Assembly: GCA_964492825.1 (NCBI GenBank)
Contig: CAZBLP010000004.1
Location: 1-56,376 of the forward strand
Direction of reading: 5' to 3'
DNA length: 56,376 nt
Origin: an uncultured bacterium
GTDB taxonomy: Bacteria; DYJV01
Below, piece by piece: positions 28,321-50,929 of this stretch. Below the pieces are notes generated by a model that was not told where the DNA came from, did no database searches, and saw only the letters and a program-made list of their open reading frames with translations. The translations under genes were made by a program, and so were the position numbers. Within the stretch, counting starts at the first letter, position 1. Each line of letters begins with the position of its first letter.

Positions 28321-29160
28321 ATGAGAAAAATTGATGTGTCAGAGATAAAAACAAAAGTTAAACAAATGTGTATGGATGCAAATTTTTATCTTGGCAAGGA
28401 TGTTGTCGATTCATTTAAAAAAAGTCTTGAGATTGAGGAATCAGATACAGGAAAGCATATTTTAAATGTTTTACTTCAAAATTCGGAAATAGCCAAAACC
28501 GAACATATTCCTATTTGCCAGGATACTGGCGTTGCGGTAATTTTTCTTGAAATTGGCCAAGATATACATTTTGTCGGAGGAGACCTTTACAAAGCAATAA
28601 ACGATGGTGTCAGGGAAGGATACCAAGAAGGTTATTTAAGGAAATCCATGTGTGACCCGTTTACAAGAAAAAATACAGGCGATAACACTCCGGCGGTTAT
28701 ACATTTTAAGATAGTACCTGGAGATAAAGTCAAGCTCATTGTTGCGCCAAAAGGTGGCGGAAGTGAAAATATGAGTTTGCAGCAAATGTTAAAGCCAGCA
28801 GATGGAATAGAAGGAATAAAAAAAATGATAATAGATAGAGCTTCTGTTGCAGGCCCTAACCCTTGCCCTCCTGTAATTATTGGCGTTGGAATAGGTGGTA
28901 ATTTTGAAAGAAGCACTATTTTGTCCAAAGAAGCTCTTTTGAGAGAAATTGGTAGCAGTAACCCCGACCCTGAACTTGATAAAATTGAAAAAGAATTATT
29001 AGAGAAAATTAATAATCTTGGTATGGGCCCTCAGGGATTAGGCGGCAGAGTTTATTGTCTTGCAGTGCACATTAAAAAGGAACCTTGTCATATAGCATCG
29101 CTTCCTGTTGCTATAAATTTTCAATGTCATGCAGCAAGACATAAAGAAGTTGTAATTTAA
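28321..29160 (+). CDS. class I fumarate hydratase, alpha subunit (FumA/TtdA N-terminal family)
   Basis: PICQDTG, KGGGSEN, GPNPCPP, CHIASLPV, CHAARH. Confidence 0.92.
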   Translation: MRKIDVSEIKTKVKQMCMDANFYLGKDVVDSFKKSLEIEESDTGKHILNVLLQNSEIAKTEHIPICQDTGVAVIFLEIGQDIHFVGGDLYKAINDGVREGYQEGYLRKSMCDPFTRKNTGDNTPAVIHFKIVPGDKVKLIVAPKGGGSENMSLQQMLKPADGIEGIKKMIIDRASVAGPNPCPPVIIGVGIGGNFERSTILSKEALLREIGSSNPDPELDKIEKELLEKINNLGMGPQGLGGRVYCLAVHIKKEPCHIASLPVAINFQCHAARHKEVVI

Positions 29161-29171
29161 GGAGAAAACAG

Positions 29172-29732
29172 ATGTCTGATATAATTAAAATACATGCACC
29201 ATTAACTGACGATGTTTTGGAAAATTTAAAAGCCGGTGATAATGTCCTTATTTCAGGAACAATATATACAGGGAGGGATGCTGCGCATAAAAGATTGACA
29301 GATTTAATAAAAAAAGGTAAAGAACTCCCTTTTGATATAAAAGGTCAGATAATATACTTTGTTGGCCCTACCCCACCAAAACCTGGCAAGGTTATTGGTG
29401 CTTGCGGGCCTACTACAAGTTACAGAATGGACCCTTATTCTCCTTTGCTTATAGAACACGGATTAAAAGGTATGATAGGCAAAGGTACAAGATCTCAGGA
29501 AGTTAAAGATTCAATGGTTAAATATAAAGCTGTTTATTTTGCCGCAATTGGCGGAGCAGGAGCTCTAATAAGCGAATGTATTAAAGAAGCTGAGATAATA
29601 GCTTATGAGGATTTAGGCCCCGAAGCTATTAGGAGGCTTGTTGTAAAAGATTTTCCAGTTGTCGTTGTAAATGATATTTACGGCAATGACCTTTATGAAA
29701 TAGGTAGAGCTAAATACGCTAAAAATGATTGA
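29172..29732 (+). CDS. class I fumarate hydratase, beta subunit
   Basis: GRDAAHKR, GPTTSYRM, IGKG, DLGPEA. Confidence 0.92.
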   Translation: MSDIIKIHAPLTDDVLENLKAGDNVLISGTIYTGRDAAHKRLTDLIKKGKELPFDIKGQIIYFVGPTPPKPGKVIGACGPTTSYRMDPYSPLLIEHGLKGMIGKGTRSQEVKDSMVKYKAVYFAAIGGAGALISECIKEAEIIAYEDLGPEAIRRLVVKDFPVVVVNDIYGNDLYEIGRAKYAKND

Positions 29733-29746
29733 TTCAGGAGGATTGG

Positions 29747-30157
29747 ATGAAAACTAAATTATCTAAAGAATCTATTGATTCTGAAATAATTGAGAAAATA
29801 GAAGAAATAAGTGGCGAAAATATATATAAATGTTATCAATGCGGTAAATGTTCAGCAGGATGTCCTGCTGTTGAAGAGATGGATATAATGCCTTCACAGG
29901 CAATAAGGTTCCTTCAGCTTGGCATGTACGATAAAGTTCTTAATAGTAAAACAATATGGATTTGTGCTTCCTGTATAATGTGCTTTAACAGATGCCCAAA
30001 AGGAGTTGATTTTGCCAAAATTGCAGAAGCTTGCAGAATGATTAAGTTGCGTAAAGAAGGAAGTAAAATAGAAGTAATTGATTTTGACGAAGATTATAGA
30101 AAAAGAGCGCCTCAAATAGCTTTTATAAGCTGTTATAGAAAATTTTCTTCATTATAG
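29747..30157 (+). CDS. hdrC: heterodisulfide reductase subunit C-like (HdrC1)
   Basis: CYQCGKCSAGCP and CASCIMCFNRCP; GGAGG RBS favours ATG 29747 over the track start 29729. Confidence 0.85.
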   Translation: MKTKLSKESIDSEIIEKIEEISGENIYKCYQCGKCSAGCPAVEEMDIMPSQAIRFLQLGMYDKVLNSKTIWICASCIMCFNRCPKGVDFAKIAEACRMIKLRKEGSKIEVIDFDEDYRKRAPQIAFISCYRKFSSL

Positions 30158-30159
30158 TA

Positions 30160-30217
30160 ATTGGATTTAGGATTTTGATATATTCCGGATCTTAAGTCCT
30201 AATCTAAAAATCCAAAT
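30160..30217. repeat. intergenic imperfect hairpin of GGATTTA/AAGTCCT-type heptamers
   Basis: TTGGATTT(30161-68) pairs with AAATCCAA(30208-15); AGGATTT pairs with AAGTCCT. Confidence 0.5.
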
Positions 30218-30232
30218 ACGTAGGAGTTTAAA

Positions 30233-31105
30233 ATGGAATTTGCTTATTTTCCAGGCTGTACATTATATACAAAAGCTACTCATCTCGACCATGCAGGAAG
30301 AGAATCAGCTAAAAAATTAGGCTTTGAATTAAAAGAGCTTGATAATTGGACATGTTGCGGTGCTTCATTTCCACTTGTTAATGATTATCATATGGGACTT
30401 GCATCATGTTCAAGAGTTTTAGCAGATACTAAAAATGAAGGATATGACAAATTAGTGACTCTCTGCTCAGTATGTTATAATGTATTAAAGAGGACCAATT
30501 ATGTTTTAAAAAATGATGAAGAAAGAAGATATAAAATAACAGAATTTATAGAAAGAGAATATCATGGAGAGTTAGATGTTACTCATTATCTGGAAATTAT
30601 AAGAGATGAAATAGGGTTTGATAATTTAAAAGAGAAAGTTATAAAACCTCTTAAAGATTTAAAAGTGGCTGTTTATTACGGGTGTTTGCTTTTAAGACCT
30701 CATAAAGAGATTCAGTTTGATGATCCAGAAAATCCTTCAATTTTTGAGAATTTTATGTGTGCATTAGGTGCAGAAGATGTTTACTTTCCATACAAAAATG
30801 AATGTTGCGGTGCATTTCAGGTAATGAATAACGTTGAAACTGCCAACAGATGCTCACATAATATAATTGAAAATGCAATTAAAAACGGAGCTGACTTAAT
30901 AGTAACTTCATGTCCGCTTTGTCAGTTTAATTTAGATGACAGACAAAAGATTTTAACAGAAACATACGATAAGTTTAATACAATTCCTGTAGTTTATTTT
31001 ACACAATTATTGGGCCTTGCAATGGGGCTGGATTACGAGGTTCTTGAATTTGAAAGAAATTTTGTTGATCCGAGACCTGTTTTAAAAGAAAAGGGACTTA
31101 TTTAA
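30233..31105 (+). CDS. hdrB: heterodisulfide reductase subunit B (HdrB1)
   Basis: two complete CCG domains: YFPGC/WTCCG/CSVC and YYGC/ECCG/CPLC. Confidence 0.92.
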   Translation: MEFAYFPGCTLYTKATHLDHAGRESAKKLGFELKELDNWTCCGASFPLVNDYHMGLASCSRVLADTKNEGYDKLVTLCSVCYNVLKRTNYVLKNDEERRYKITEFIEREYHGELDVTHYLEIIRDEIGFDNLKEKVIKPLKDLKVAVYYGCLLLRPHKEIQFDDPENPSIFENFMCALGAEDVYFPYKNECCGAFQVMNNVETANRCSHNIIENAIKNGADLIVTSCPLCQFNLDDRQKILTETYDKFNTIPVVYFTQLLGLAMGLDYEVLEFERNFVDPRPVLKEKGLI

Positions 31106-31137
31106 AAAATTTTTAACTATTTTTTAGGGGAATATAA

Positions 31138-32466
31138 ATGTCAGATTTTGTTAAAAGGGTTTTGGTTATAGGTGGCGGAATAGCAGGTATTACAGCAGCT
31201 ATTGATATTGGCAATGCCGGTTATGAAGTTGTTATGGTTGAAAAACTGCCAAGTGTTGGCGGTAGGATGCTTCAACTTTCAGAAACTTTTCCTACTCTTG
31301 ATTGTGCTCAATGTACTCTTACTCCAAGAACCGTTGAGACAGGACAACATCCTAATGTTAAACTCTATACATATGCAGAGGTTGTTAATGTGGAAGGAGA
31401 AGCCGGTAATTTTAAAATAAAAATCAGAAGAAAGCCAACTTATGTTGATTGGAGTAAATGTACAGGATGTGGCACATGCGTTGAGAAATGCCCTGCTAAA
31501 GTTCCTTCTGAATTTGAAAGAGATGCTGGAAAAGGAAAAGCAATTTACACTTTATCTCCCCAGGCAGTTCCAAATAAACCGGTAATAAACGCTGATTATT
31601 GCAGAATGCTTACAAAAGGCAAATGCGGAGTTTGTTCTAAGGTCTGTCCTGTTGGAGCAATTGATTATAAACAAACAGAAAGTTTTTTTGAAGAAGAAGT
31701 TGGAGCCATTATTGTAGCAACCGGTTTTCAAGTATACAACAAAAGTAATTTAAAAGATTATGGAGCAGGAAATATCCCTGATGTAATAGACGGACTTACA
31801 ATGGAAAGATTTTTATCAGCTTCAGGCCCTACAACAGGTGTTGTAAAAAGGCCTTCTGATGGCAAAATTCCAAAAGAGATAGTTTTTGTGCAATGTGCAG
31901 GCTCCAGAGATCCTGAATTTCATAAGCCTTATTGTTCAAGAATTTGCTGTATGTATACTGCAAAACATGCCAAATTGTACAAACATAAAGTACATGACGG
32001 TAAAGCTTATATTTTTTACATAGATATACGATCTACAGGAAAGGGATATGAACAGTTTATTCAGCAGACAATGGAAGAGGAAAGAGTTGTATATGTCAGA
32101 GGCAAAGTTTCCAAAATTTTTCAGGATGGCGATAAAGTTGTAGTTTGGGGCTCTGACACTTTAACTGGAGAAAAAATAGAGATTTCCGCTGATATGGTAG
32201 TATTGGCTGCTGCTGTTGAGCCTAATCCTGAAGCAAAAGAAATAGCAGAAACTTTAGGGATAGATATTAATGAATTAGGTTTTTTTAAAGAAAAAGATTA
32301 TAAAACAAGCTCAAATGAAACAAACAGAGAAGGAATTTATCTTGCAGGCTGCTGCCAAGGAATTAGAGATATTGCAGATTCCACAGCTCATGCAAGTGCG
32401 GCTGCAAGCAAAGTTCATGTATTGTTTGAAAAATTAAGTAATAAACTTGCTAAAAAAAGTTGTTAA
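31138..32466 (+). CDS. hdrA: short HdrA-like flavoprotein lacking N- and C-terminal Fe-S domains
   Basis: starts at GGGIAG; FPTLDCAQC; inserted ferredoxin; QCAGSRD...YCSRICCMYTAK; ends after GCCQG. Confidence 0.88.
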   Translation: MSDFVKRVLVIGGGIAGITAAIDIGNAGYEVVMVEKLPSVGGRMLQLSETFPTLDCAQCTLTPRTVETGQHPNVKLYTYAEVVNVEGEAGNFKIKIRRKPTYVDWSKCTGCGTCVEKCPAKVPSEFERDAGKGKAIYTLSPQAVPNKPVINADYCRMLTKGKCGVCSKVCPVGAIDYKQTESFFEEEVGAIIVATGFQVYNKSNLKDYGAGNIPDVIDGLTMERFLSASGPTTGVVKRPSDGKIPKEIVFVQCAGSRDPEFHKPYCSRICCMYTAKHAKLYKHKVHDGKAYIFYIDIRSTGKGYEQFIQQTMEEERVVYVRGKVSKIFQDGDKVVVWGSDTLTGEKIEISADMVVLAAAVEPNPEAKEIAETLGIDINELGFFKEKDYKTSSNETNREGIYLAGCCQGIRDIADSTAHASAAASKVHVLFEKLSNKLAKKSC

Positions 32467-32481
32467 AAGAGGAATAATAAA

Positions 32482-34464
32482 ATGCCCAAAAGAATAGGTG
32501 TTTTTGTATGCTGGTGCGGTGCAAATATTGCATCTTCTGTTGATGTTAACAAAGTTGTTGAAGAAATAAAAAAAGAACCTGACGTTGAATTTGCCATAAA
32601 TTATATGTACATGTGTTCTGATCCGGGACAGCAGCTTGTAAAAGATCATATTGTAGAAGACAATTTAAACGGTGTGGTTGTGTGCAGTTGTTCACCAAGA
32701 ATGCACGAAAATACATTTAGAAAAGCAGCTGCAAGTGTCGGACTCAATCCTTTTTTAGTGGAAATAGCTAATATTAGAGAGCAGTGCAGTTGGGTTCATC
32801 AGGGGGACAAACCTGTAGCTACTGCAAAAGCAATTAATATTATAAAAGCAACTATTGAAAAAGTAAGACAAAATATAGAATTAGTACCTATTGAAGTCAG
32901 TCTTAATAAAAGGTCTCTTGTTGTTGGAGCCGGTATCAGCGGAATAATGGCAGCAATAGATCTTGCAGAAGCTGGATATGAAGTTGTGCTTGTTGAAAAA
33001 GAGCCTGCTATTGGCGGCAAACTTTTGCAATTATACAAAACAGTTCCTTATTTTAAAAAAGCATCTGATTATATAAAAGAAAAATCAGAAATAGTTTTAA
33101 ATCATCCGAATATTACTTTATACACATATAGCGAAATTGACGACCTTGACGGTTATGTCGGAAATTTTGAAGTTAATATCAGAAAAAAAGCTTCTTTTAT
33201 TAATACGGACAAATGCACAAATTGCAACAAATGTATTGACGTCTGTCCTGTTGAAGTTTCAGACGAATTTAACAGAGGATTGTCAAAGAGAAAAGCAGTT
33301 CATTATCTTACTGAAAAAGCATTCCCAAAAAGATTGGTAATTGATGCTGCAAATTGCAAACATTTTACAGATGGGAATTGTGACAAGTGCGTTAATGTAT
33401 GTAAAGAATCGGCAATAGATTTTAATATGAAGGATGAAATTGTTAAAGAGCTTGTTGGTGCAATTGTGATAGCAACAGGATATAAACTTTACAGTTCAGC
33501 AAATTTCCCTGAATGGGGAGGCGGAGAACTACCTGATGTTATTGATGCTCTTGCATTTGAAAGAATGCTTGATCCTGAAGGTCCTACAGGTGGTAAAATA
33601 ATCAGACCATCAAACGGAAAAGAAGCCAAAACAGTTTTATGGGTAAAATGTGCAGGCTCAAGAGATCCTGAATTTCATAAACCGTACTGCTCAAGAGTCT
33701 GTTGTATTTATACTGCAAAACAGGCAAGGCTTTTTAAACAAAATGTTCCTGATGGTAAAGCTTTTATCTCTTACATGGATATAAGAACAGATTCAAAAGA
33801 TTTTGAAGAGTTTTATCATGCAGGAATTGAAAATGACAGAATAGTATATATAAGAGGAAGAATTTCCAAAGTCTTTCAAGAAGGAGAAAATTTGGTTGTC
33901 CGAACTTCTGATACTCTTACAGGTGAGGCACTTGATTTGGAAGTTGACCTTGTGGTCTTGGCAAATGCTATTGTTCCAGTTGACGGAGTGGAAGAACTTG
34001 CAAAAAAATTGAGAGCAACAATAGATGAATTTGGATTTTTCTCAGAAACACATATAAAACTTTACCCTGTTGAGAGTTCTACAAAGGGAATTTATTTGGC
34101 AGGATGCGCTCAATCGCCAAAAGATACAACAGATTCGGTATCTCAGGCATTGGCATCAACAGGTAAAATTTTAACACTTTTTGCAAATGACAAATTAAGC
34201 CAGGACCCTTTAATTGCTATGGTTGATCCTCTTGTATGCAGTGGTTGCGGTATTTGTGTCGATATCTGTCCTTATGGTGCAAGAAAATTAAACGAAATTA
34301 CAAAAATATCAGATGTTAATAAAGCTTTATGTCAGGGATGCGGTGCCTGTATAGCAGCTTGTCCCAACAAGGCTTGCGAGCTGATTAATCAGACAAGCAT
34401 TCAGACTTTCAGAATGATTAATACATTCCAAGAGCCTGATATGGAAATAGTGCTTGAATCATAA
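32482..34464 (+). CDS. hdrA: HdrA with N-terminal Fe-S domain but lacking the DCxxC motif
   Basis: IGVFVCWCG...CSCSP...NIREQCSWVH; GAGISG; LYKTVPYF replaces TLDCxxC; inserted and C-terminal ferredoxins. Confidence 0.9.
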   Translation: MPKRIGVFVCWCGANIASSVDVNKVVEEIKKEPDVEFAINYMYMCSDPGQQLVKDHIVEDNLNGVVVCSCSPRMHENTFRKAAASVGLNPFLVEIANIREQCSWVHQGDKPVATAKAINIIKATIEKVRQNIELVPIEVSLNKRSLVVGAGISGIMAAIDLAEAGYEVVLVEKEPAIGGKLLQLYKTVPYFKKASDYIKEKSEIVLNHPNITLYTYSEIDDLDGYVGNFEVNIRKKASFINTDKCTNCNKCIDVCPVEVSDEFNRGLSKRKAVHYLTEKAFPKRLVIDAANCKHFTDGNCDKCVNVCKESAIDFNMKDEIVKELVGAIVIATGYKLYSSANFPEWGGGELPDVIDALAFERMLDPEGPTGGKIIRPSNGKEAKTVLWVKCAGSRDPEFHKPYCSRVCCIYTAKQARLFKQNVPDGKAFISYMDIRTDSKDFEEFYHAGIENDRIVYIRGRISKVFQEGENLVVRTSDTLTGEALDLEVDLVVLANAIVPVDGVEELAKKLRATIDEFGFFSETHIKLYPVESSTKGIYLAGCAQSPKDTTDSVSQALASTGKILTLFANDKLSQDPLIAMVDPLVCSGCGICVDICPYGARKLNEITKISDVNKALCQGCGACIAACPNKACELINQTSIQTFRMINTFQEPDMEIVLES

Positions 34465-34504
34465 ATTTTTAAAATAGATAAGTTATTACAAACAGAGGTT
34501 TAAT

Positions 34505-35047
34505 ATGAATAAATTTGCAGAAGAGATTAGCAGTAAAAGCGGAGAAATTTTTAATCTGTGTTATCAATGTAAAAAATGTACTGCAGGTTGTCCTACAGCG
34601 GAGTTTATGGATATTAAGCCAAATGAAATCATAAGACACATTCAATATGGCAACAGAGACAAATTATTAACAAGTGAAGCTATTTGGCTCTGTGTTTCCT
34701 GTGACACATGCGGTGAAAGATGTCCGAATGATATAAAAATTTCAAAATTAATGGGAGCTTTGAGAAGAAAAGCAATTGAAGATAAAGTGGAAATAGCTGA
34801 TAAAGTCGGCTATGCATTTAACAGATCATTTGTTGAAAGTATAAAAAGATACGGCAGGGTTCATGAAGCTACATTTTTAATTTCATACAAATTAAAAACA
34901 AAAGATTTTTTTAGCGAAGCTGCTTTAAATGACATGAAAGTCGGTATAAAATTATTCATGAGAGGTAAGTTACCTCTTTTCCCAAAAAAAATAAAAGACA
35001 TGACTGCTATTAAAAACATATTTAAAAAATGTGTGCCAGAGATTTAG
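34505..35047 (+). CDS. hdrC: heterodisulfide reductase subunit C (HdrC2)
   Basis: CYQCKKCTAGCP and CVSCDTCGERCP, GRVHE. Confidence 0.88.
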   Translation: MNKFAEEISSKSGEIFNLCYQCKKCTAGCPTAEFMDIKPNEIIRHIQYGNRDKLLTSEAIWLCVSCDTCGERCPNDIKISKLMGALRRKAIEDKVEIADKVGYAFNRSFVESIKRYGRVHEATFLISYKLKTKDFFSEAALNDMKVGIKLFMRGKLPLFPKKIKDMTAIKNIFKKCVPEI

Positions 35048-35102
35048 TTTTTTTTATTTTTAGAGAGCATTAATAAAATTTAAAAAAACATCAGGAGTAA
35101 AA

Positions 35103-35927
35103 ATGGAACTGTCATATTATCCAGGTTGTACTGCTCATTCAACAGCAATAGAGTATGAAAACTCAATTGAAGAAGTTTTGAAAATTTTGGGAGTAACAAT
35201 TAAAGAAATAGAAGATTGGAATTGTTGCGGCTCAGGGCCTGCAAAAAATATAAGCGAAGACCTTGTTATAAACCTTTCTGCAAGAAATATAAAAATAGCT
35301 GAAAAAGAGGGCAAAGATCTTCTTATACCATGTGCAGGATGTTTTAATAGTTTGAAAAGATCTGAATATGCATTAAAAGACAATAGTAAAAAAGCTGAAA
35401 TAGAGAATAATGTTGATTTCAAATTTCAGGGAAATATCAACATAAAATATATTTTGGATACATTTATGGAAATAGGTATTGATAAAATAAAAGCAAATGT
35501 TAAAAAAGAGTTATCACAAATTAAAGCTGTTTGTTATTATGGATGTGCAATTTTAAGACCAAGCGAGGTTGTAACTTTTGACAATCCCGAACATCCTGAT
35601 TCAATGGATGAATTAATGAAAGCAATTGGGGTGAAAGTTCTTGATTGGCCGTCAAAGGTTGACTGCTGCGGCGGTGATGCAGCTCTTACCAATCCGGAGC
35701 TTGCATCAAAATTAATTGGTAAGATCGTTGATTATGCAAAAGAAGCCGGAGCAAACTGTATTGTTACGTCATGCGGATTATGCCAGGCAAATATTGATAC
35801 AAAACAGAGCACGGATAATCCGTTGCCTGTGTTATATTTTACTGAATTAATAGGTGAAGCTTTTCAGGTTTCAGATACAAGCAGTTGGTGGAAAAAACAT
35901 ATTGTGGATCCAAAAGGATTATTTTAA
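35103..35927 (+). CDS. hdrB: heterodisulfide reductase subunit B (HdrB2)
   Basis: YYPGC/WNCCG/CAGC and YYGC/DCCG/CGLC. Confidence 0.92.
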   Translation: MELSYYPGCTAHSTAIEYENSIEEVLKILGVTIKEIEDWNCCGSGPAKNISEDLVINLSARNIKIAEKEGKDLLIPCAGCFNSLKRSEYALKDNSKKAEIENNVDFKFQGNINIKYILDTFMEIGIDKIKANVKKELSQIKAVCYYGCAILRPSEVVTFDNPEHPDSMDELMKAIGVKVLDWPSKVDCCGGDAALTNPELASKLIGKIVDYAKEAGANCIVTSCGLCQANIDTKQSTDNPLPVLYFTELIGEAFQVSDTSSWWKKHIVDPKGLF

Positions 35928-35956
35928 ATTTTAATTAAAAAATTCGGAGAATTAAC

Positions 35957-38950
35957 ATGAATGAGGTTGCAATAATAGGTGCAGGTTTTGCAGGAATGAG
36001 TGCGGCTCTTGCACTTGCTGATAAAGGTGTAAAAGTTAATTTAATAGATAAAAAAGTTGCAATGGGCGGTTATTTCCCGTTATTGGATAATCAATTCCCT
36101 ACAAATTCCTGCGGAGTTTGTTTTTTATCTCCTGAGCCACCTGCTTTTTGTCCTTTTATAGAGTGTAATTTAAGAGAAAATATAAATTTTATGGGAAATG
36201 CATTAGTTGAAAATATTTCAGGGGAAGAAGGCAATTTCACAATTAATGTAAAAATTCTCAATAACCCTGTAAACAATGATTTATGTATAGATTGCGGCAA
36301 ATGTGAAGAAGTTTGTCCTGTTGAAGTTTCTAATGAATTTGGCGATGGTATTGAGGTTAGAAAAGCGGTTTACAAATTTTATCCCAAAGCAGTTAAAAAA
36401 TCTTATTTTCTTAATATTGACAATTGCAATAAATGCAATAAATGTGTTGAAATATGCCCTACTAAGGCAATTGATTTAAATGCGAATAATGAGAAAAATA
36501 TCAGTTTAAATGTATCTGAAATTATTTTAACTCCCGGTTTCAAATCAGTTCAAGGAAATATTAAGGAAGAATTTGGTTTTGGTATTAATAAAAATGTTCT
36601 TTCATCTGTTCAATATGAAAGACTTATAAGCCCTTCAGGTCCTACAAAAGGAATACCGCAAAGACCTTCAGACGGTTCTCATCCAAAAAGTATAGCTTTT
36701 CTTCAATGTGTAGGCTCAAGAGACATTAGAAAAAAAGGCAATCCTTACTGTTCTTCAATTTGCTGTATGTTTGCATTAAAACAGGCAATGCTTACCAAAG
36801 ATAAACTACCAGATACTGATATTACCTTTTTTTATATGGATATAAGAGCTTTTGGAAAAGATTATGAACAATATTTCCAAAAAGCAAAAGATGAATATGG
36901 AATAAATTTTATCAGGTGCCATGTATCTACTGTAAAAGAACATGGTGACAGTAAAATCATTACAATTACATATTATGAAAACGGAGAATTAAAGGAGAAA
37001 GATTTTGATATAGCTGTACTTTCACTTGGATTTTATCAGGATGAAGAAACAAAAGCTTTAATTCAAAAATCAGGGATAAATGTCAATGAATTTAATTTTG
37101 CAATTACAAATGAATTTTCTCCTTTTAATACCAATATCCCAGGCATTTATGCAGCAGGTTCTTTTATTGCGCCTAAAGATATCCCTGAAACTACCACTGA
37201 TGGCTCAGGTGTGGCAGCAAAAATATTGGAAAAATTCAAACCAGGTTCAGATAAATTTACTCCTGTGCCAATTTCACCATCTATGGCTGAAAGCCCAAGA
37301 GTTGGAGTTTTGATATGTAAATGCGGCAATATTCTTGAAAATAGCATTGATATTTCCGCTGTTCTACAAAGTTGTAAAAATATTCCCGAAGTTGTTTATA
37401 CAGATACCATTGATAATCTCTGTAATAAAGAGACATTAAATGAAGTGAAAAAAATAATTTCAGACAATGCACTTGACAGATTGGTTGTAGGAGGCTGCTC
37501 TGTTAGAGAGCTTGAAGCTATTTTTGAAAAATTTAAAGACACTGGTTATTCAATGTTAAACTTTGAATTTGTTAATTTAAGAGAACAATGTATTTTTTCA
37601 AGCAATTGTGATAATTTTATTCTTACAGAGAAATCCTTTATTCTTTTAAATTCCGCAATAAAAAAAGTTTTATTAAACAAAGCTTCTAATCAAACTAAAA
37701 CAGAAATTAAAGATTCAGCTCTTGTAATAGGTGCCGGTGCCGCAGGAATGAGCGCTGCTCTGTCTCTTGCATACCAGGGTAGCAAAGTATTTTTAATAGA
37801 AAAAAATGATGAAATAGGCGGAAGATTGCTTAATGCATATTATACGTTAAAAGGTACGGATATTCAGAAAAGTATAAAATCCCTTGTAGAAGAAGTAAAA
37901 AATAATAAAAATATAGAAATTTTGACAGGTGCCAGAATAACCTCTTCAGAAGGATTGGTAGGAGACAGAAAAACAAAAGTTTTAACAGGCGAAGTTGAAC
38001 GTGAAATTGAACATGGAGTTACTGTTTTAGCTACAGGAGCATGTGAAGTTATCCCTGCCTCTTATTCCTATAATGAATCTGATAAAATAATTACCCAGGT
38101 TGAGCTTGAAGAAAAAATAGCTAACAATAATTTATCTGAAAATATAAAAGAAATAGTTATGATTCAATGTGTAGAATCAAGGGAAAAAGGCAAGAGAGAA
38201 TATTGCAGCAGAGTTTGCTGTACCCATGCTTTAAAAAATGCACTTAAACTAAAGGAAAAATATCCGGATGTTCAAATTACGGTTCTTTACAGAGATATAA
38301 GAGCTTACGGATTTTATGAAAATTTTTATAGGCAAGCCAGAAACAAGGGGATTATATTTATTCCGTATGATGTTAATAAAAAACCTGAAGTTAAAGTTTC
38401 AGGCGATACTGTAGCAATTAGTTTTGAAGATACTATAATAAACGAAGAAGTTAATAAAAATACAGACTTGTTAGTTTTAAGCACAGGCATCCAGGCTAAT
38501 GATAATAAAAAATTAGCAGATATATTCGGAATTCCCATTGATAAATTTAACTTTTTTAAAGAAGCAAATAAAAAAACCGGTATTTTAACATTTTTAAAAA
38601 AAGATATTTTTATGTGCGGACTATGCCATGCTCCAAAGCATATTGACGAAGCAGTTGCACAAGGTTATTCTGCTGCAGCAAGAGCTTCTCTGTTTTTATC
38701 AAAAAAAGAACTAATATCTTTGGAGAAAAAATCTTTTGTTATTGACAGGTTTTGCAGTGGCTGCGGAATATGCGTTGAAGTGTGTCCATTTGATGCAAGA
38801 ATTATTGATGAAGAAAAGAAAATAGCAAAAGTATTTGAGACTATCTGCGAAGGCTGCTCAGCTTGTGTTATGGCTTGTCCAAACGGAGCAGCACAGCAGT
38901 ATGGTTATGAAAAATCACAGATATTAAATGTTGTGGATAAATTACTTTAA
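35957..38950 (+). CDS. hdrA: large tandem HdrA-HdrA fusion (two FAD domains)
   Basis: two GAGxAG motifs; first half FPTNSCGVC + inserted ferredoxin; second half GVLICKCG...NLREQC + C-terminal ferredoxin. Confidence 0.88.
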   Translation: MNEVAIIGAGFAGMSAALALADKGVKVNLIDKKVAMGGYFPLLDNQFPTNSCGVCFLSPEPPAFCPFIECNLRENINFMGNALVENISGEEGNFTINVKILNNPVNNDLCIDCGKCEEVCPVEVSNEFGDGIEVRKAVYKFYPKAVKKSYFLNIDNCNKCNKCVEICPTKAIDLNANNEKNISLNVSEIILTPGFKSVQGNIKEEFGFGINKNVLSSVQYERLISPSGPTKGIPQRPSDGSHPKSIAFLQCVGSRDIRKKGNPYCSSICCMFALKQAMLTKDKLPDTDITFFYMDIRAFGKDYEQYFQKAKDEYGINFIRCHVSTVKEHGDSKIITITYYENGELKEKDFDIAVLSLGFYQDEETKALIQKSGINVNEFNFAITNEFSPFNTNIPGIYAAGSFIAPKDIPETTTDGSGVAAKILEKFKPGSDKFTPVPISPSMAESPRVGVLICKCGNILENSIDISAVLQSCKNIPEVVYTDTIDNLCNKETLNEVKKIISDNALDRLVVGGCSVRELEAIFEKFKDTGYSMLNFEFVNLREQCIFSSNCDNFILTEKSFILLNSAIKKVLLNKASNQTKTEIKDSALVIGAGAAGMSAALSLAYQGSKVFLIEKNDEIGGRLLNAYYTLKGTDIQKSIKSLVEEVKNNKNIEILTGARITSSEGLVGDRKTKVLTGEVEREIEHGVTVLATGACEVIPASYSYNESDKIITQVELEEKIANNNLSENIKEIVMIQCVESREKGKREYCSRVCCTHALKNALKLKEKYPDVQITVLYRDIRAYGFYENFYRQARNKGIIFIPYDVNKKPEVKVSGDTVAISFEDTIINEEVNKNTDLLVLSTGIQANDNKKLADIFGIPIDKFNFFKEANKKTGILTFLKKDIFMCGLCHAPKHIDEAVAQGYSAAARASLFLSKKELISLEKKSFVIDRFCSGCGICVEVCPFDARIIDEEKKIAKVFETICEGCSACVMACPNGAAQQYGYEKSQILNVVDKLL

Positions 38951-39019
38951 AATATAAAGACATAATTAAGACTTTTAGAAATAAAAAAACAACTTGAAAC
39001 TGAATAAAGAGGTGTGAAT

Positions 39020-39448
39020 ATGGCAGATGAGAAATTTGAACCAAAATTAATTGCATTTTTGTGTCACTGGTGTACTTATACAGGAGCAGACCTTGCCGGT
39101 ACCACAAGACAGCAGTACCCGCCTAATATAAGAGTTGTACATCTTATGTGCTCAGGTGGTATAGACGTTGTCTATGTACTAAAATCTTTGCTTGAAGGTG
39201 CAGACGGTGTACTTATTGGTGGATGTCATCCAGGGGATTGTCATTATCAATCAGGAAATTTTAAAGCAAGAAGAAGGATTGCTATTTTAAAAAATATTCT
39301 AAAACAATTCGGTCTGGAAGATGACAGAGTTTGGCTAAGGTGGATAAGTGCAAGTGAAGGTAAAATGTTTGCAGATACAGTTACTGAATTTACCAATTTT
39401 TTAAAAGCCAAAGGACCTGCTAAATTGAAGTTAACATGGGATGCTTAA
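39020..39448 (+). CDS. mvhD: MvhD/FlpD [2Fe-2S] subunit
   Basis: FLCHWCTY, LMCSG, GGCHPGDCHY; start ATG 39020 or GTG 39014. Confidence 0.92.
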   Translation: MADEKFEPKLIAFLCHWCTYTGADLAGTTRQQYPPNIRVVHLMCSGGIDVVYVLKSLLEGADGVLIGGCHPGDCHYQSGNFKARRRIAILKNILKQFGLEDDRVWLRWISASEGKMFADTVTEFTNFLKAKGPAKLKLTWDA

Positions 39449-39508
39449 TTTTTTAGATAATTGTCAGTTAAATGTTTTTAAGTTTGAACTAAACATAGGA
39501 GGAAATAG

Positions 39509-40630
39509 ATGCCTGTTACAAATAAAGTAAATAACCTGGAAGGGGTTATAGATTACTTAAAAAAATTACTTGAAAATAATGTGGTAGATGAAATTTTAAT
39601 ACCTAAACTCAGCAGCTCAAAAGATAATTATATCCAGACTCTTGTCAGTTCACCTGACATGTTAGAAGGCTGTAATCCTTTTGCACCTGTTATCCCTATT
39701 CAAACAGGTAGGATTGCAAAAAACCTGACTTTTACAACATCTGGCAAAAAATTGCTTATTATTGCAAAACCATGCGAAATTAAAGCAATTGTTGAGCTAA
39801 CGAAATTTAAACAGGTAAATCTTGACAATTGTTACATAATTGCAGTTGATTGTATTGGGACTTATGATGTTAACGATTTTCAGGAAATTTTATTGAATAA
39901 TCAAGATTATATAGATAATTTTACTTCAAAATACAGCAGCGGTGAATTTAAACCTGTTAATGGTTTTTCATTTAGAAAATCTTGCTCAATGTGTGAAACA
40001 CCCTCAATATCATTGGAACTTGTTGATGGTGTTTTCGGATATTTCGCCACTTCAGGAAGTGAAATTTTCATTATTGCCAAAGATGATTCTCCTTTAAAAG
40101 AAACTTTTGAAAATCAAAATCTGGATTTGTCAAAAAGAGAAGATGTTATAAATAAACTTAAACAGGAACGATTAAAGAATAAAAATGAAATTTTAAATAA
40201 TTTCAGAGAAGAAACATCAAATCTCGAATCTTTACAAAAGGTATTTTCAAAATGTATTAGATGCCACAACTGTATGGTTGCCTGTCCAATATGTTACTGC
40301 AAGGAATGTGTTTTCAGAAGTCCTACCTTTGATCATTCAGCTGATATGATTACAGGTTGGGCAGAAAGAAAAGGAGCCTTGAGAATGCTCGAAAACACAT
40401 TAATGTTTCACCTTACAAGACTTAATCATATGTCAAGTTCCTGTATAGCCTGCGGATTATGCTCAAGTGCATGTCCCAATGATATAGATGTGGCAACTGT
40501 TTTTATCAGTGTTTCAGACAATGTTCAAAATATGCTCGATTATAAAGCTGGTGAAAGTTTTGACGAGCCTGCGCCAGTTACAACTTTTAGAGAAAACGAG
40601 CTTGTTGCAGAAGCAGGCACAAATGAATAA
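39509..40630 (+). CDS. FdhB/FrhB-family iron-sulfur (flavo)protein
   Basis: KPCEIKAIVEL, DCIG, CSMC, CIRCHNCMVACPICYCKEC, CIACGLCSSACP. Confidence 0.75.
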   Translation: MPVTNKVNNLEGVIDYLKKLLENNVVDEILIPKLSSSKDNYIQTLVSSPDMLEGCNPFAPVIPIQTGRIAKNLTFTTSGKKLLIIAKPCEIKAIVELTKFKQVNLDNCYIIAVDCIGTYDVNDFQEILLNNQDYIDNFTSKYSSGEFKPVNGFSFRKSCSMCETPSISLELVDGVFGYFATSGSEIFIIAKDDSPLKETFENQNLDLSKREDVINKLKQERLKNKNEILNNFREETSNLESLQKVFSKCIRCHNCMVACPICYCKECVFRSPTFDHSADMITGWAERKGALRMLENTLMFHLTRLNHMSSSCIACGLCSSACPNDIDVATVFISVSDNVQNMLDYKAGESFDEPAPVTTFRENELVAEAGTNE

Positions 40631-40658
40631 TTTTATAAATATTATAAATTAACCAAGC

Positions 40659-41453
40659 ATGGAGGATAAAATGAGTGAAGCAAAAAAACAGCAAATTAAC
40701 ATTGCTACCGGTGACAGACCTGTTCTTCCGGAAGGTTCAAAAGAGATACCGGTATATATAATGGGTAAAAAATATATGGTGCCTGAGACAATTACCATTC
40801 AGAAAGCAATTGAATATGCCGGATATAAATTTATTAGAGCATGCGGCTGCCGTGGCGGAATTTGTGGTGCTTGCGGAACTGTTTACAGAATATACGGAGA
40901 TTACAGATTAAATTTCGGTTTAGCATGCCAGACTGTTGTACAGGAAAATATGTATATTGCACAGATTCCCTTTTATCCTGCTAACAGGGCAAAATATAAT
41001 ATAAATGAAGTAGAAGCAGAAGCAGACACAATAATGGCACTTTATCCTGAAGTTTTAAAATGTGTAGGATGTAACACTTGTTCAAAAGCCTGTCCTATGG
41101 ATATAGATGTTATGGGATACATTAATGCTGCAATGAGAGGTGATGTTGAAAAAGTGGCAAAATTATCTTTTGACTGTATTCAATGTGGGTTATGCTCGTC
41201 AAGATGTCCTGCACAAATACAGCATTATCACGTAGCGCAACTTTGCAGAAGATTGTATGGTAAATATATTCTTCCTAAGGATACTTTTTTACAGGAAAGA
41301 AGCAAGGACATAGAAAACGGCAAATATGAAAATATGCTTGCTGAATTAAAACAATTACCCCTTGATGAACTTAAGAAAAAATATGTTGCAAGAGAAATGG
41401 AGCCAGCAACTCATGACGGCACATGGATGCCTCAGGAAACGGAATATTTGTAA
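40659..41453 (+). CDS. FrdB/SdhB-like iron-sulfur subunit ([2Fe-2S] + 2x[4Fe-4S])
   Basis: CGCRGGICGAC...LACQT; CVGCNTCSKACP; CIQCGLCSSRCP; start may be ATG 40671. Confidence 0.8.
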   Translation: MEDKMSEAKKQQINIATGDRPVLPEGSKEIPVYIMGKKYMVPETITIQKAIEYAGYKFIRACGCRGGICGACGTVYRIYGDYRLNFGLACQTVVQENMYIAQIPFYPANRAKYNINEVEAEADTIMALYPEVLKCVGCNTCSKACPMDIDVMGYINAAMRGDVEKVAKLSFDCIQCGLCSSRCPAQIQHYHVAQLCRRLYGKYILPKDTFLQERSKDIENGKYENMLAELKQLPLDELKKKYVAREMEPATHDGTWMPQETEYL

Positions 41454-41489
41454 AATTAAAAATCGAAAATTTAAATAAAGGAGCAAAAA

Positions 41490-43148
41490 ATGGGATACAC
41501 ACCTGAAATGAAAGAATTAATAAAAAAAGTTGAAGCTTCAAGACCTGCAAGGGTTGATAAAGCAAGAAACGGGGAAATGTTTCCTCCTTTGACACTTGAT
41601 CAGAGAGAAGAAGTTCTGAATAAATTCCATCCTGATTATAAATCTGTGGGAAGACGTGCAGTAAAAGTTGGTCCAAGCAAAGGAGAAATTTATCCTGACG
41701 AATTTGCAGATGTACTTGAAGCTCACAGTAGAATCGAACCAAATATAGATTTGGACACTCTTTTAAAATATGAAACAGATGTGCTTGTAATAGGCGGGGG
41801 AGGAGCCGGAAGTGCAGCTGCATTGCTTGCACAGGAGCAAGGATGCAAAGTAATTATAGCCACAAAACTTCGTCATGGTGATGCCAATACAGTGATGGCA
41901 GAAGGCGGTATTCAGGGTGCTACAAGAAAACCTGATTCCCCATATTATCACTACCTTGATGTAATGGGAGGCGGACACTTTACCAATGATCCAGAGCTTG
42001 TTGCTGCTCTTGCAAATGATGCTCCTCTTGTTATTAGATGGCTTGAAGATCTCGGAATGATGTTTGACAAAGATGAAAAGGGTAATTTAAAAACAAGGCA
42101 TGGCGGAGGAACATGCAGAAAAAGAATGCACTCAGCAGGTGACATGACAGGTTCAGAAATAATGAGAGTTTTAAGAGATGAAGTTAGAAACAGATGTGAT
42201 GATATAGATGTTCTGGAATTTACTCCTGCTGTTGAAATAGTTTTGGATGAGAACGGTAATGCTGCAGGTGCAGTATTATACAACATGGAAACAGAAGAAT
42301 TTTTTGTTGTAAAAGCAAAAGCAGTTATTATTGCCACAGGTGGTTACGGAAGACTTCATATTCAAGGTTTTGCAACAACCAATCACTATGGTGCCACAGC
42401 AGATGGTCTTATATTAGGTTACAGAGCGGGAGTGCCTTTGGCTTTTATGCATTCCACTCAATATCACCCAACAGGAGCTGCATTTCCCGAGCAAAATATT
42501 GGGCTTTTAATTACAGAAAAAGTAAGAGGATTAGGTGCCAATCTTTTAAATATAAACGGAGAGCAGTTTGTATTTGAAAGGGAGCCAAGAGATGTTGAAT
42601 CAGCTTGTATTATCAGAGAATGCCTTGAAAGAGAGCTCGGCATTGTGACTCCTACAGGTAGAGTCGGTGTATGGCTTGATTCTCCAATGATTGACATGCT
42701 TGAAGGTGCTGGAACAGTTGAAAAAGAACTACCTGCAAAATATATTCAGTTTAAAAGATACAACATTGATATTAGCAAAGAGCCTATGCTTGTTTTTCCA
42801 ACACTTCATTATCAAAACGGAGGCTTAAAAATAAAAGATTCTACTGAGACTAATGTACCGGGGTTATTTGCTGCAGGTGAGGCAAGCGGCGGAGTTCACG
42901 GCGAGAACAGATTAATGGGAAATTCTCTTCTTGATATTACAGTTTTTGGAAGAAGAGCTGGAAAAGCCGCAGGAGAATATGTAAAAAACGGAGTTAATAT
43001 TGGTAAATTAACTCTTGAACATATAAAGAAATATGAAGAAGAATTAAAAGAAGCAGGTATTGATACAGAAAGGCAATCTCCAATGTTGCTTCCTGATTAC
43101 ACAAGACCTGAAATAAAAAAAAGCCAACTCACTCATATAGTATGGTAA
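41490..43148 (+). CDS. FrdA/SdhA/TfrA-like flavoprotein (dicarboxylate active site, no covalent-FAD His)
   Basis: GGGGAG, ANTVMAEGG, QYHPTG, LITEKVRG, EPRD, LHYQNGG, VHGENRLMGNSL. Confidence 0.85.
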   Translation: MGYTPEMKELIKKVEASRPARVDKARNGEMFPPLTLDQREEVLNKFHPDYKSVGRRAVKVGPSKGEIYPDEFADVLEAHSRIEPNIDLDTLLKYETDVLVIGGGGAGSAAALLAQEQGCKVIIATKLRHGDANTVMAEGGIQGATRKPDSPYYHYLDVMGGGHFTNDPELVAALANDAPLVIRWLEDLGMMFDKDEKGNLKTRHGGGTCRKRMHSAGDMTGSEIMRVLRDEVRNRCDDIDVLEFTPAVEIVLDENGNAAGAVLYNMETEEFFVVKAKAVIIATGGYGRLHIQGFATTNHYGATADGLILGYRAGVPLAFMHSTQYHPTGAAFPEQNIGLLITEKVRGLGANLLNINGEQFVFEREPRDVESACIIRECLERELGIVTPTGRVGVWLDSPMIDMLEGAGTVEKELPAKYIQFKRYNIDISKEPMLVFPTLHYQNGGLKIKDSTETNVPGLFAAGEASGGVHGENRLMGNSLLDITVFGRRAGKAAGEYVKNGVNIGKLTLEHIKKYEEELKEAGIDTERQSPMLLPDYTRPEIKKSQLTHIVW

Positions 43149-46981: not shown

Positions 46982-47686
46982 TCAGACACTTTCATTATTC
47001 TTTAAAATATATCCTATACCTGGTGCAGACTCAATGACAACGTGATTTTTTAATTTCTTTCTCAAATGGTTAATATGAACATCAATTGTTCTTGACCAAT
47101 TATAAATATCTTTTCCTTTCCAAAGATTTTCTTTAATTTCATTTCTGGAGCATATTCTATCACTGTTTTCAATTAGAAACATTAAAAGATTAAATTCTGT
47201 TCTTGTTAAATTGATTTTTTCATTATTAATATAAGCTTCTCTTTTCTGAGGATAAATAGTTAATGATTTAATGTTGACTACATCTTTTGAATTTAGTTTA
47301 TTATCTTTAAAATTATATCTTCTTAAACAACTCTTTATTCTCGCTGAAAGTTCCAGAAAATTAAAAGGCTTAACAATATAATCATCTGCTCCGCATTCAA
47401 GCCCAAGAACTTTGTCAGATACAGCATCTCTTGCAGTTAACATAATAACAGGTATATCCATATTTTCTTTTCTTATTTTATTGCATAATTGAATTCCGTC
47501 TATATCCGGGAGATTTAAGTCAAGTATTATAATATCAGGATTAGCTCCGGAAATTAAATCATAGGCTTCAAGGCCTGTTTCAGCAGTAATCACATCATAT
47601 CCTTCCAATTTCAGATTTGCAGAAATAACCTTTAAAATATCCGTATCATCATCTATAACTAAAATTAATATATCATTTTGTTCCAT
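46982..47686 (-). CDS. OmpR/PhoB-family response regulator
   Basis: IDDD, ILDLNLP phospho-Asp, MLTA, DYIVKPF, LTRTEF, RTIDVHINHLRKK, GIGY. Confidence 0.93.
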   Translation of the reverse strand: MEQNDILILVIDDDTDILKVISANLKLEGYDVITAETGLEAYDLISGANPDIIILDLNLPDIDGIQLCNKIRKENMDIPVIMLTARDAVSDKVLGLECGADDYIVKPFNFLELSARIKSCLRRYNFKDNKLNSKDVVNIKSLTIYPQKREAYINNEKINLTRTEFNLLMFLIENSDRICSRNEIKENLWKGKDIYNWSRTIDVHINHLRKKLKNHVVIESAPGIGYILKNNESV

Positions 47687-49309: not shown

Positions 49310-49864
49310 TTAAAAAGTCAAAATAAAATTTTCAATAAGCTGAATAACATGCTCATAAAATTTTATATTCTCTTTTTTAACTTTTTTATTAAGTTCAGGG
49401 ATCCAGCTTTTCAGATGGGTATTTTCAAAGGAAATTAACTTTTCAATTTTGTTTTCAGAACTCAAATAATGTGCAAATTCAAGTATGGTAGGAAGGTAAT
49501 CAGGCATATCTCTGTCAGCAAGTTCCACACCTTCTTCATAATATAACTTTTCAAGAGACAATAGGAACTTAGCTCTGTCTTCAGCTCTATCGCTTTTTAC
49601 TATATAATGAGATTCATATAATGGAGTTTTCAAATCAAAATTGGTTGTGTATGTAACCTGTAACTCCTCTATATCTGTAAAATCTTTTCTCATTAAATTG
49701 ATTAGCTTTTCACTTCCGTCTCGCCTGAAATATTCTTTAAGATTATCAAAAAGCCAACCAGAAATGATAGCTTCAGCTATTTCTTTGTCAGGATAACTTA
49801 TTGCCATTGATAAAAGTTTATAATTTACTGTTTTGTTAATGCTTTCATCCATAACTATCTCCAA
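49310..49864 (-). CDS. TorD/DmsD/NarJ-family molybdoenzyme chaperone (delta subunit)
   Basis: YTTNFD...PLYES...MPDYLPTILEF; directly after beta subunit; start may be a few codons downstream. Confidence 0.8.
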   Translation of the reverse strand: MEIVMDESINKTVNYKLLSMAISYPDKEIAEAIISGWLFDNLKEYFRRDGSEKLINLMRKDFTDIEELQVTYTTNFDLKTPLYESHYIVKSDRAEDRAKFLLSLEKLYYEEGVELADRDMPDYLPTILEFAHYLSSENKIEKLISFENTHLKSWIPELNKKVKKENIKFYEHVIQLIENFILTF

Positions 49865-49875
49865 AAGATAAAGAT

Positions 49876-49948: not shown

Positions 49949-49987
49949 TTTTTTATTTCTCATTATTCATTTTTAATTGAGTTATAT

Positions 49988-50905: not shown

Positions 50906-50929
50906 GACAACCTCCTATAATTTATGATT

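Follow-up and report, generated by a model that had tools for sequence, protein, structure and literature searches.

Complementary HdrA partners, encoded separately and as a fusion, in one fumarate-linked operon of an uncultured bacterium

The stretch of DNA analyzed here, 56,376 nucleotides of contig CAZBLP010000004.1 (assembly GCA_964492825.1, positions 1 to 56,376 of the forward strand; hereafter the window), comes from an uncultured bacterium (GTDB lineage Bacteria; DYJV01) and holds an operon of 13 genes, all on the plus strand (28321–43148), with three genes for proteins related to heterodisulfide reductase subunit A (HdrA). The gene order is fumA, fumB, hdrC1, hdrB1, hdrA-S, hdrA-L, hdrC2, hdrB2, fused hdrA, mvhD, fdhB-like, frdB-like and frdA-like, and two Hdr modules can be recognized. 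Module 1 has two separate HdrA proteins, a short one of 442 residues (hdrA-S, 31138–32466; S442), referred to below as the core partner, and a long one of 660 residues (hdrA-L, 32482–34464; L660), the arm partner. Module 2 has a single chain of 997 residues (fused hdrA, 35957–38950; F997), which consists of a core-type half 1 (residues 1–430, 35957–37246) and an arm-type half 2 (residues 443–997, 37283–38950), joined by a linker (residues 431–442, 37247–37282). All three proteins match methanogen HdrA structures first: S442 aligns to residues 143–564 of 5ODC_A (E 1.5e-125), L660 to the same chain over its full length (E 5e-181), and F997 finds 8RVU_a as its top match (E 1e-129), in three stretches. 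The best scores against the NCBIfam equivalogs for CoB–CoM HdrA are 474, 681 and 712 bits, below the cutoffs of 1100–1400.

The four flavin units of these proteins were aligned by MAFFT to the HdrA of M. thermolithotrophicus, and the numbering of 5ODC_A, rebuilt from the printed alignment, is used for reference positions. S442 has neither the N-terminal Fe–S domain (N-domain) nor a C-terminal ferredoxin; it retains Cys56 and Cys59 (LDCAQC, nucleotides 31303–31314), the equivalents of Cys194 and Cys197, and all eight cysteines of the inserted 2×[4Fe-4S] ferredoxin (31435–31677). L660 has the N-domain (32488–32877), with cysteine at the five conserved positions (reference 11, 13, 46, 71 and 103), and two complete ferredoxins, one inserted (33190–33432) and one C-terminal (34210–34401), and carries K193 and D196 at positions 194 and 197 (VPYFKKASDY, 33043–33072). 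The same division recurs within the one chain of F997, whose domain architecture is A-I-B-N-A-B-C: half 1 has neither N-domain nor C-terminal ferredoxin and keeps Cys52/Cys55 at the Cys194/Cys197 site (NSCGVC, 36110–36121) together with a complete inserted ferredoxin (36260–36487), and half 2 has the N-domain (37295–37681), I/S at positions 194/197, no inserted ferredoxin and a complete C-terminal ferredoxin (38726–38917). A thioredoxin-reductase-like flavin adenine dinucleotide (FAD) domain with GxGxxG fingerprint is found in each of the four flavin domains, all of which keep Glu356, Lys409 and the ligands Cys386/399/403/404 of the flavin-proximal cluster, and not one of which carries the full canonical set of N-domain, Cys194/197, inserted ferredoxin and C-terminal ferredoxin. 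An initial annotation, made from the nucleotide sequence, had already described a 442-residue HdrA that lacks the N-domain and keeps TLDCAQC, a 660-residue HdrA that has the N-domain and has lost DCxxC, a 997-residue chain that repeats this pattern with the N-domain-less half first, and a Glu and a Lys kept in four FAD domains; the alignment to 5ODC_A bears these statements out residue by residue, and identifies the last two residues as Glu356 and Lys409, which adjoin the bifurcating flavin (PMC12054007).

Two further features of the cysteine complement of F997 were noted. Half 2 does contain a CGLC (residues 887–890, 38615–38626), situated in a conserved flavin-binding stretch ('AG.CQGPKD') away from the canonical site, with Cys887 kept in 92% and Cys890 in 75% of homologues, so that the earlier description of half 2 as having no CxxC is true only of the canonical site. 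Directly after Cys52/Cys55, a six-residue insertion (residues 65–70, 36149–36166) carries Cys65 and Cys70 and gives a C-x2-C-x9-C-x4-C motif. Cys65 is present in 120/120 close fused homologues and Cys70 in 113/120, and 222 fused first halves, when sorted by cysteine count, comprise 131 with four, 47 with three and 44 with two. This insertion could be the site for an extra cofactor.

The asymmetric HdrA pattern is a conserved family trait. A domain and motif census was taken of 405 HdrA-like proteins, 225 two-domain members of which were classed: 204 have a Cys pair and inserted ferredoxin followed by an N-domain, no Cys pair and a C-terminal ferredoxin, and in none of the 225 is the Cys pair, the N-domain or the C-terminal ferredoxin present twice. 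Cys52/Cys55 are invariant in 120/120 of the fused homologues listed (43–78% identity, about 1000 residues), and among the first 40 of these the CxxC is in half 1 alone. The Cys pair is absent from 119/119 L-type homologues. The S family is about 70% identical across metagenome-assembled genomes (MAGs) labeled Desulfobacterota, with TLDCAQCT in every member whose site was located by the motif scan (about 100 of 120 matches). Five other copies of the operon show the S/L/fusion pattern, and the S segment LSETFPTLDCAQCTLTPRTVET is unchanged in them, whereas the corresponding L segment is free to vary, as exemplified by KTVPYFKKASDY, KTFPYFQDVPAM and KTFPDLDPAPGG; in locus L006, where the extracted stretch is offset by one residue, the S segment has one substitution after the Cys pair, TPK for TPR. 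Conservation follows the order S442, L660, fusion half 1, fusion half 2 in 5/5 comparisons. The operon as such is shared by 8/8 sampled gene neighborhoods. Chance or an assembly artefact was considered as the source of the pattern and rejected, because the pattern recurs in all homologues and loci examined.

Fused HdrAs of other build also occur. Two rare ones, P0257 and P0449 (1085–1089 residues; P0449 labeled Candidatus Nezhaarchaeota), are partitioned differently, with N-domain, Cys pair and inserted ferredoxin in half 1 and an inserted and a C-terminal ferredoxin but no Cys pair in half 2. P0264, P0275 and about 20 others (1470–1530 residues) carry some 450 additional residues within the inserted ferredoxin of half 1, which recall the GltD/NfnB-type insertions described in type III HdrA of archaea.

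How such a division of domains could work may be read from the structures of the methanogen complexes. Chadwick et al. 2022 describe, on the basis of a crystal structure, an N-terminal cluster that takes one Cys ligand, Cys197, from the other HdrA (PMC9012536). In the cryo-electron microscopy (cryo-EM) structures, arm and core operate in trans between protomers: a mobile arm carries, by turns, the [2Fe-2S] cluster of MvhD and the cluster of the N-domain (HA3/A3) toward the partner FAD, from which the N-domain cluster remains 20–33 Å away, the low-potential electron passes from HA3 to HA5′/HA6′, that is, the partner's inserted ferredoxin, and the Cys pair of the partner (Cys202/205 in M. marburgensis, Cys/Sec197 in M. 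maripaludis) either holds a ligand seen as unidentified density or acts as a redox relay between the clusters of the arm and this FAD (PMC12350162, PMC13580544, PMC13518236). The initial annotation had taken the partner Cys as a ligand of the N-terminal cluster and the reciprocal losses as the mark of an obligate asymmetric dimer with one shared cluster. The losses are real, conserved and as predicted, and the ligand has its precedent in the description of 2022; against the mobile arm, the relay or ligand function of the Cys pair and the 20–33 Å distance seen by cryo-EM, however, a fixed ligand and a single static shared cluster are too simple. Trans coupling between protomers still stands. 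An alternative that would retain the static picture has a [4Fe-4S] bridge made by N-domain cysteines of the long partner and the second DCxxC Cys of the short one, with the losses removing the second bridge of the dimer, and the placement of N-domain and Cys pair on opposite partners in both modules agrees with it. It is at odds not only with an N-domain that moves with the arm and with a Cys pair that binds separate density or makes a Cys–Sec relay, but also with the five conserved cysteines that the N-domain has of its own and with P0257 and P0449, which hold N-domain and Cys pair in the same half, and it leaves the partition of the C-terminal and inserted ferredoxins unexplained; we consider it unlikely. 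From the trans layout, the arm elements (N-domain and C-terminal ferredoxin) are expected on one partner and the elements served by the arm (Cys pair, FAD and inserted ferredoxin) on the other. The partition in the fusion is exactly as this layout predicts, and that between S442 and L660 likewise, except for the extra inserted ferredoxin in L660.

That S442 and L660 would form a heterodimer is plausible. The two genes are adjacent in 8/8 sampled contexts, and joint action of S-type and L-type partners is indicated, by Rosetta-stone logic, by natural S+L fusions (P0259, P0260 and P0262). Conversely, the two proteins might be unpaired, functioning alone or as homodimers, with S442 as a non-bifurcating protein of the sHdrA/QmoA kind, L660 as a CxxC-less HdrA, and their adjacency reflecting a shared pathway. 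The small HdrA-like protein of Hyphomicrobium (6tjr), which we take to be a homodimer, lends itself as precedent, being a solved minimal HdrA-like structure. An S442 homodimer, however, would have no arm and no dock for MvhD, and the arms of an L660 homodimer would aim at flavins that have no Cys pair. With the constant adjacency, the existence of fused S+L proteins and a fused paralogue next door that shows the same partition in one chain also speaking against it, we regard unpaired proteins as very improbable.

At the nucleotide level, hdrA-S and hdrA-L are 15 nucleotides apart, with an AAGAGGA ribosome-binding site. The two genes share a reading frame, with a TAA and five codons between them (…KKSC*KRNNKMPKR…, 32464–32484), and read-through of the hdrA-S stop would yield an S+L fusion resembling P0259, P0260 and P0262. 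Since the frame relation is lost in locus L001, this arrangement is probably a coincidence.

The fusion was modeled with AlphaFold2 using an alignment of 82 sequences, which gave a mean predicted local distance difference test score (pLDDT) of 88.8 and a predicted template modeling score (pTM) of 0.90. Only in the linker (residues 431–442) does pLDDT drop below 50; confidence is low, at 59–75, around the Cys pair (residues 41–70). F997 is modeled as one compact body, and the high pTM argues for the two halves packing together. In Foldseek searches, half 1 matches an arm-less HdrA core (8rwn_A, TM 0.91, root-mean-square deviation 2.2) and half 2 best matches full-length HdrA in 'state 1' (8rvy_A and 7bkd_A, TM 0.77, root-mean-square deviation 3.3–3.5); against the 2017 crystal form 5odc_A half 2 scores TM 0.53, which is no match. 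Structure searches with S442, L660 and the fusion found no structure of an asymmetric or fused HdrA in the 2026 copy of the PDB.

The origin of the two arrangements was examined with a neighbor-joining tree of 174 flavin cores (320 columns, 200 bootstraps). The initial annotation had expected first halves to fall together and second halves to fall together, but S442 groups with L660 and not with the fusion halves: the two are part of a six-member clade (bootstrap 84) whose other members are two canonical HdrAs with all domains and two further L-type proteins, and the first and second halves of the fusions make up separate large clades. The deep nodes have no bootstrap support, and only the grouping of S442 with L660 is therefore claimed from this tree. 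Pairwise identities of the flavin cores are 49–50% between S442 and L660, 45–47% between either of these and methanogen HdrA, and 28–36% between either and either fusion half. Members of the S/L clade share an LSETFP(T/R)L flank, and one L-type relative has LSETFPRLESVNIL at the site where S442 has LSETFPTLDCAQC. A recent fusion of hdrA-S and hdrA-L within the operon was considered as the source of the fused protein and rejected, its halves being only 28–36% identical to S442 and L660. Judged from these sequence relationships, module 1 looks like a canonical Hdr module whose HdrA was duplicated and then underwent reciprocal loss, and module 2 is a member of the old fused family. Since S442 and L660 group with each other to the exclusion of the fusion halves, there were probably at least two origins of the asymmetry, and such an independent origin of the split pair suggests that HdrA evolution has repeatedly taken a selectable path in which one half-site is lost.

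The reading that we favor, and to which we assign a probability of about 0.6, is that each module is a pseudo-symmetric HdrA pair which has kept one of the two bifurcating half-sites of the methanogen (HdrA)2 dimer, and the proposal of an asymmetric dimer is improved when recast in these terms. In the methanogen dimer, each arm serves four elements that belong to the opposite protomer: its FAD, Cys194/197 pair, flavin-proximal cluster and inserted ferredoxin. The core partners (S442 and fusion residues 1–430) retain exactly these served elements and the arm partners (L660 and fusion residues 443–997) exactly the serving ones, the arm partners having lost the Cys pair and, in the fusion, the inserted ferredoxin as well. 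The counts of inserted ferredoxins given in the initial annotation, two in the split pair and one in the fusion, are correct, and the difference between the modules would reflect the degree to which the HdrA dimer has been reduced. Electrons would enter through the FdhB-like protein, the probable electron-input subunit, and MvhD, and be delivered by the arm to the FAD of the core partner by way of the Cys pair of the core. There they would be split, with one branch running over the flavin-proximal cluster to HdrC/HdrB and the other over the N-domain cluster of the arm to the inserted ferredoxin of the core partner and onward to ferredoxin. The second flavin domain, which has the FAD and cluster motifs and no arm and no Cys pair at its disposal, would probably be a scaffold or a plain electron-transfer flavin. 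This reading is supported by the residue-level complementarity in both modules, with every element of one half-site kept and the other's lost, by the better conservation of core-type than of arm-type partners in 5/5 comparisons, and by an S442 motif that is near-invariant across operons where the L660 site drifts. The close spacing of hdrA-S and hdrA-L, the natural S+L fusions, the compact model of F997 and the 8/8 conserved neighborhoods speak for it too. It is further supported by the position of mvhD and the fdhB-like gene, which come after the fused hdrA just as they do in the type II HdrA clusters of archaea; mvhD follows the fused hdrA in every sampled operon.

Alternatively, both flavins of a pair could be catalytic, the Cys-less, arm-bearing domain performing a second bifurcation or serving another substrate, for instance NAD(P)H, so that two linked reactions would take place per pair. 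The FAD fingerprint, Glu356, Lys409 and the cluster ligands, present in 4/4 domains and invariant in the fused family, would be accounted for in this way. Two bifurcation reactions have been proposed for type II HdrA (PMC12054007), and the Moorella HdrA fusion binds two FAD in a complex that uses NADH without an obvious NADH subunit (PMC5861303). The second flavin, however, has no Cys pair and no arm aimed at it, and in the fusion it has no inserted ferredoxin that could act as low-potential exit; moreover, arm-type partners evolve faster than core-type ones and the degenerate site of L660 is free to vary. Two catalytic flavins per pair are, in our estimate, decidedly unlikely.

The remaining genes of the operon point to the substrate. 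The genes fumA (28321–29160) and fumB (29172–29732) encode the alpha and beta parts of a class I Fe–S fumarate hydratase (NCBIfam NF004885, 418 bits, and NF005310, 290 bits, above cutoff) and keep their position in all sampled homologous operons whose contig covers that end. Three of these loci have, between fumB and hdrC1, a gene for a UbiA-family prenyltransferase (L006, 2423–3343; L008, 7625–8539; L009, 7529–8443), which is absent from the window. In module 1, hdrC1 (29729–30157; Pfam Fer4_8/Fer4_17 dicluster) has a TTG start that overlaps the end of fumB by 4 nucleotides and is uncertain, as gene callers in related loci differ (136–157 residues), and hdrB1 (30233–31105; 2× Pfam CCG) aligns end to end with the methanogen HdrB 8rvv_B (E 7e-49). 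In module 2, hdrC2 (34505–35047) is again a Pfam dicluster protein, and hdrB2 (35103–35927; 2× Pfam CCG) encodes a protein that shares 35% identity with HdrB1 and aligns with methanogen HdrB at E 9e-37, HdrB1 being the nearer of the two to the methanogen protein. Downstream of the fusion are mvhD (39014–39448; Pfam FlpD, E 1.2e-48), for a [2Fe-2S] adaptor, and a gene for an FdhB/ElpB-like Fe–S (flavo)protein of 373 residues (39509–40630; 9t1s_M, E 6e-31; 8rvu_E, E 1e-20; 7bkb_E, E 2e-21), which aligns over nearly its whole length with FdhB subunits from Hdr complexes. No gene for an FdhA-like molybdopterin partner is present in the operon.

The last two genes encode an FrdB-like Fe–S protein of 264 residues (40659–41453), with a CxxxxCxxC and two 4-Cys motifs and weak TfrB/SdhB matches, and a FrdA/SdhA/TfrA-like flavoprotein of 552 residues (41490–43148), whose general SdhA/FrdA homology is clear (SdhA 7d6v_A, E 4e-71, from about residue 91), although its score of 352 bits misses the curated NCBIfam TfrA cutoff of 718. 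By Pfam, the FrdB-like protein has no CCG domain and thus no TfrB-type fusion of FrdB-like clusters with CCG, the CCG domains being those of HdrB1 and HdrB2. The FrdA-like protein has an N-terminal extension of about 90 residues (41490–41760), with its PDB matches all beginning at residues 87–97, and this extension could serve to dock the protein to the Hdr modules. Operons of relatives sometimes have a malate dehydrogenase gene upstream or succinyl-CoA synthetase genes downstream. A fumarate/succinate step is proposed because of the FrdA-like, FrdB-like and fumarate hydratase genes here, with mdh and sucCD in relatives. In combination with the gene order and the TfrB precedent, from which we infer that an HdrBC pair would pass high-potential electrons to FrdBA, the most likely job of the operon would be to couple fumarate/succinate redox chemistry, carried out by soluble enzymes, to ferredoxin through flavin-based electron bifurcation or confurcation.

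The genes flanking the operon are bacterial housekeeping genes (trigger factor, RpoD, DnaG, GlnA, LeuA and HflX), and the G+C content of the window is about 0.30–0.35, which together identify the host as an uncultured low-GC bacterium. Elsewhere in the window, and outside the Hdr operon, a gene for a molybdopterin oxidoreductase of 1018 residues (Pfam Molybdopterin and Molydop_binding) is followed by open reading frames of 305 and 184 residues (49310–53986, minus strand) and adjoined by a sensor histidine kinase gene (47673–49286). An Rfam search of the window gave no match. A scan of the genome collection gave only one MAG match (76% identity) and one Thorarchaeota locus.

Several points weigh against a single retained half-site. 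The inserted ferredoxin of L660 is complete, and a strictly one-sided device would not need it. In the supposedly idle flavin domains, selection has preserved Glu356, Lys409 and the ligands of the cluster, which argues for a function beyond scaffolding. There is a single mvhD gene for two arms, and P0257 and P0449 carry N-domain and Cys pair in the same half. F420, the usual FdhB substrate, is not expected in most such bacteria, and the link from HdrBC to FrdAB draws only on gene order and the TfrB precedent. A more speculative reading, which we think improbable, is that the two modules are not redundant and form a two-stage bifurcation cascade in one soluble supercomplex. One module would split the electrons of a mid-potential donor between ferredoxin and an intermediate carrier, and the other would split them again between ferredoxin and, via FrdAB, fumarate, so that more ferredoxin would be reduced, thanks to the large drop between donor and fumarate, than one bifurcation could manage; run backward, the cascade would raise succinate oxidation in two steps driven by ferredoxin. 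Cys65 and Cys70 of the fusion could in this cascade hold an extra cofactor that replaces the unidentified ligand of methanogen HdrA. Serial bifurcation has been raised as an idea where type II and type I HdrA co-occur (PMC12054007).

Compared with the methanogen HdrABC–MvhAGD, Fdh–Hdr and Elp–Hdr complexes (5ODC, 7BKB and 8RVU, among others), the bacterial proteins have the same domain set and cofactor ligands, with identities of 27–37% at the fold level and 35–46% in the flavin core, and homologues of HdrB, HdrC, MvhD and FdhB/ElpB are all present. MvhD and the FdhB/ElpB-like protein correspond to the input arm of the Fdh–Hdr and Elp–Hdr complexes, and in methanogen complexes MvhD docks on the HdrA arm. 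Methanogen HdrA, in contrast, is a symmetric homodimer with two complete half-sites, whereas the pairs described here would have one each, and the NCBIfam HdrA cutoffs are missed. In a bacterial host, assignments that involve CoM-S-S-CoB and F420 do not carry over. QmoA and QmoB of sulfate reducers are likewise two unequal HdrA-like flavoproteins encoded side by side and combined in one complex, which has a membrane subunit, QmoC, and serves APS reductase; no QmoC-like gene is present here, although no comparison with Qmo was run.

Complementary losses themselves have been described before. The tandem HdrA5/6 and HdrA12/13 and the fused HdrA3/4 of anaerobic methanotrophic archaea (ANME), and the fused HdrA of the Moorella thermoacetica MetFV–HdrABC–MvhD complex, show complementary loss of Cys197 and N-domain across adjacent genes or halves with the FAD-binding residues kept in all copies, and heterodimers or self-paired fusions were proposed for them (PMC9012536); the idea of a heterodimer by complementary loss is therefore sound and already published (PMC9012536, PMC12054007). 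The present case differs in being bacterial, in having split and fused forms in one operon beside fumarate hydratase and FrdAB-like genes, and in that S442 and L660 come from one canonical-like lineage. The order of the halves differs as well, the N-domain half coming first in the ANME and Moorella fusions (PMC9012536) and the Cys-pair half here and in the 204 relatives. Double-HdrA fusions have also been cataloged in Asgard and TACK archaea. The type II HdrA of methane-metabolizing archaea is defined in a 2025 survey as a fusion of two different type I classes whose halves keep K409 and E356 and whose genes are often found beside hdrBC, mvhD and fdhB (PMC12054007). F997 resembles these proteins in its two flavin domains with both residues in each, in the separate origin of its halves, in an N-terminal half like the short class without terminal domains, and in its neighbors hdrBC, mvhD and fdhB, with an additional type I HdrA sometimes nearby in the archaeal case. 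It differs in the Cys65/Cys70 insertion, found in 131/222 fused first halves including its own, and in the FrdB/FrdA-like genes that take the place of an FdhA-like molybdopterin subunit. As to the metabolic context, the 'succinate operon' of Pseudoclostridium thermosuccinogenes combines fumarate hydratase, Flx–Hdr and fumarate reductase (PMC7282089). This operon and the Hdr–Flx/Tfr cluster in the reductive tricarboxylic acid (TCA) operon of the Riftia symbiont share with ours the combination of fumarate hydratase, Hdr module and soluble fumarate reductase and the proposed coupling of fumarate reduction to ferredoxin reduction. Both of those use FlxABCD (NADH dehydrogenase) as input to a single Hdr module, whereas the operon described here has two Hdr modules, MvhD and an FdhB-like protein, and no Flx genes. 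In archaeal TfrB the FrdB-like clusters are fused to HdrB-like CCG domains, which are here on separate genes.

The additions made here are modest: split and fused forms occur together in one operon that is linked to fumarate and widely conserved, the split pair probably originated independently, and the fused family carries an extra conserved Cys pair. Sequence-based proposals of asymmetric HdrA pairs go back to 2022, and to our knowledge no such pair has yet been purified or had its structure determined. Having only one half-site, a pair of this kind would be a simpler object than the symmetric methanogen dimer for following the route from MvhD to the bifurcating flavin and the role of the Cys pair, and the operon supplies both a split and a fused version of it, from a bacterium and in a fumarate/succinate context whose substrates are cheap and can be assayed. 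The operon is widespread in uncultured anaerobes, being found in every sampled neighborhood of the S-type and fused HdrA homologues. Should it encode a soluble fumarate reductase coupled to ferredoxin, estimates of the energy yield for the reductive branch of the TCA cycle and for succinate oxidation would change in the organisms that carry it.

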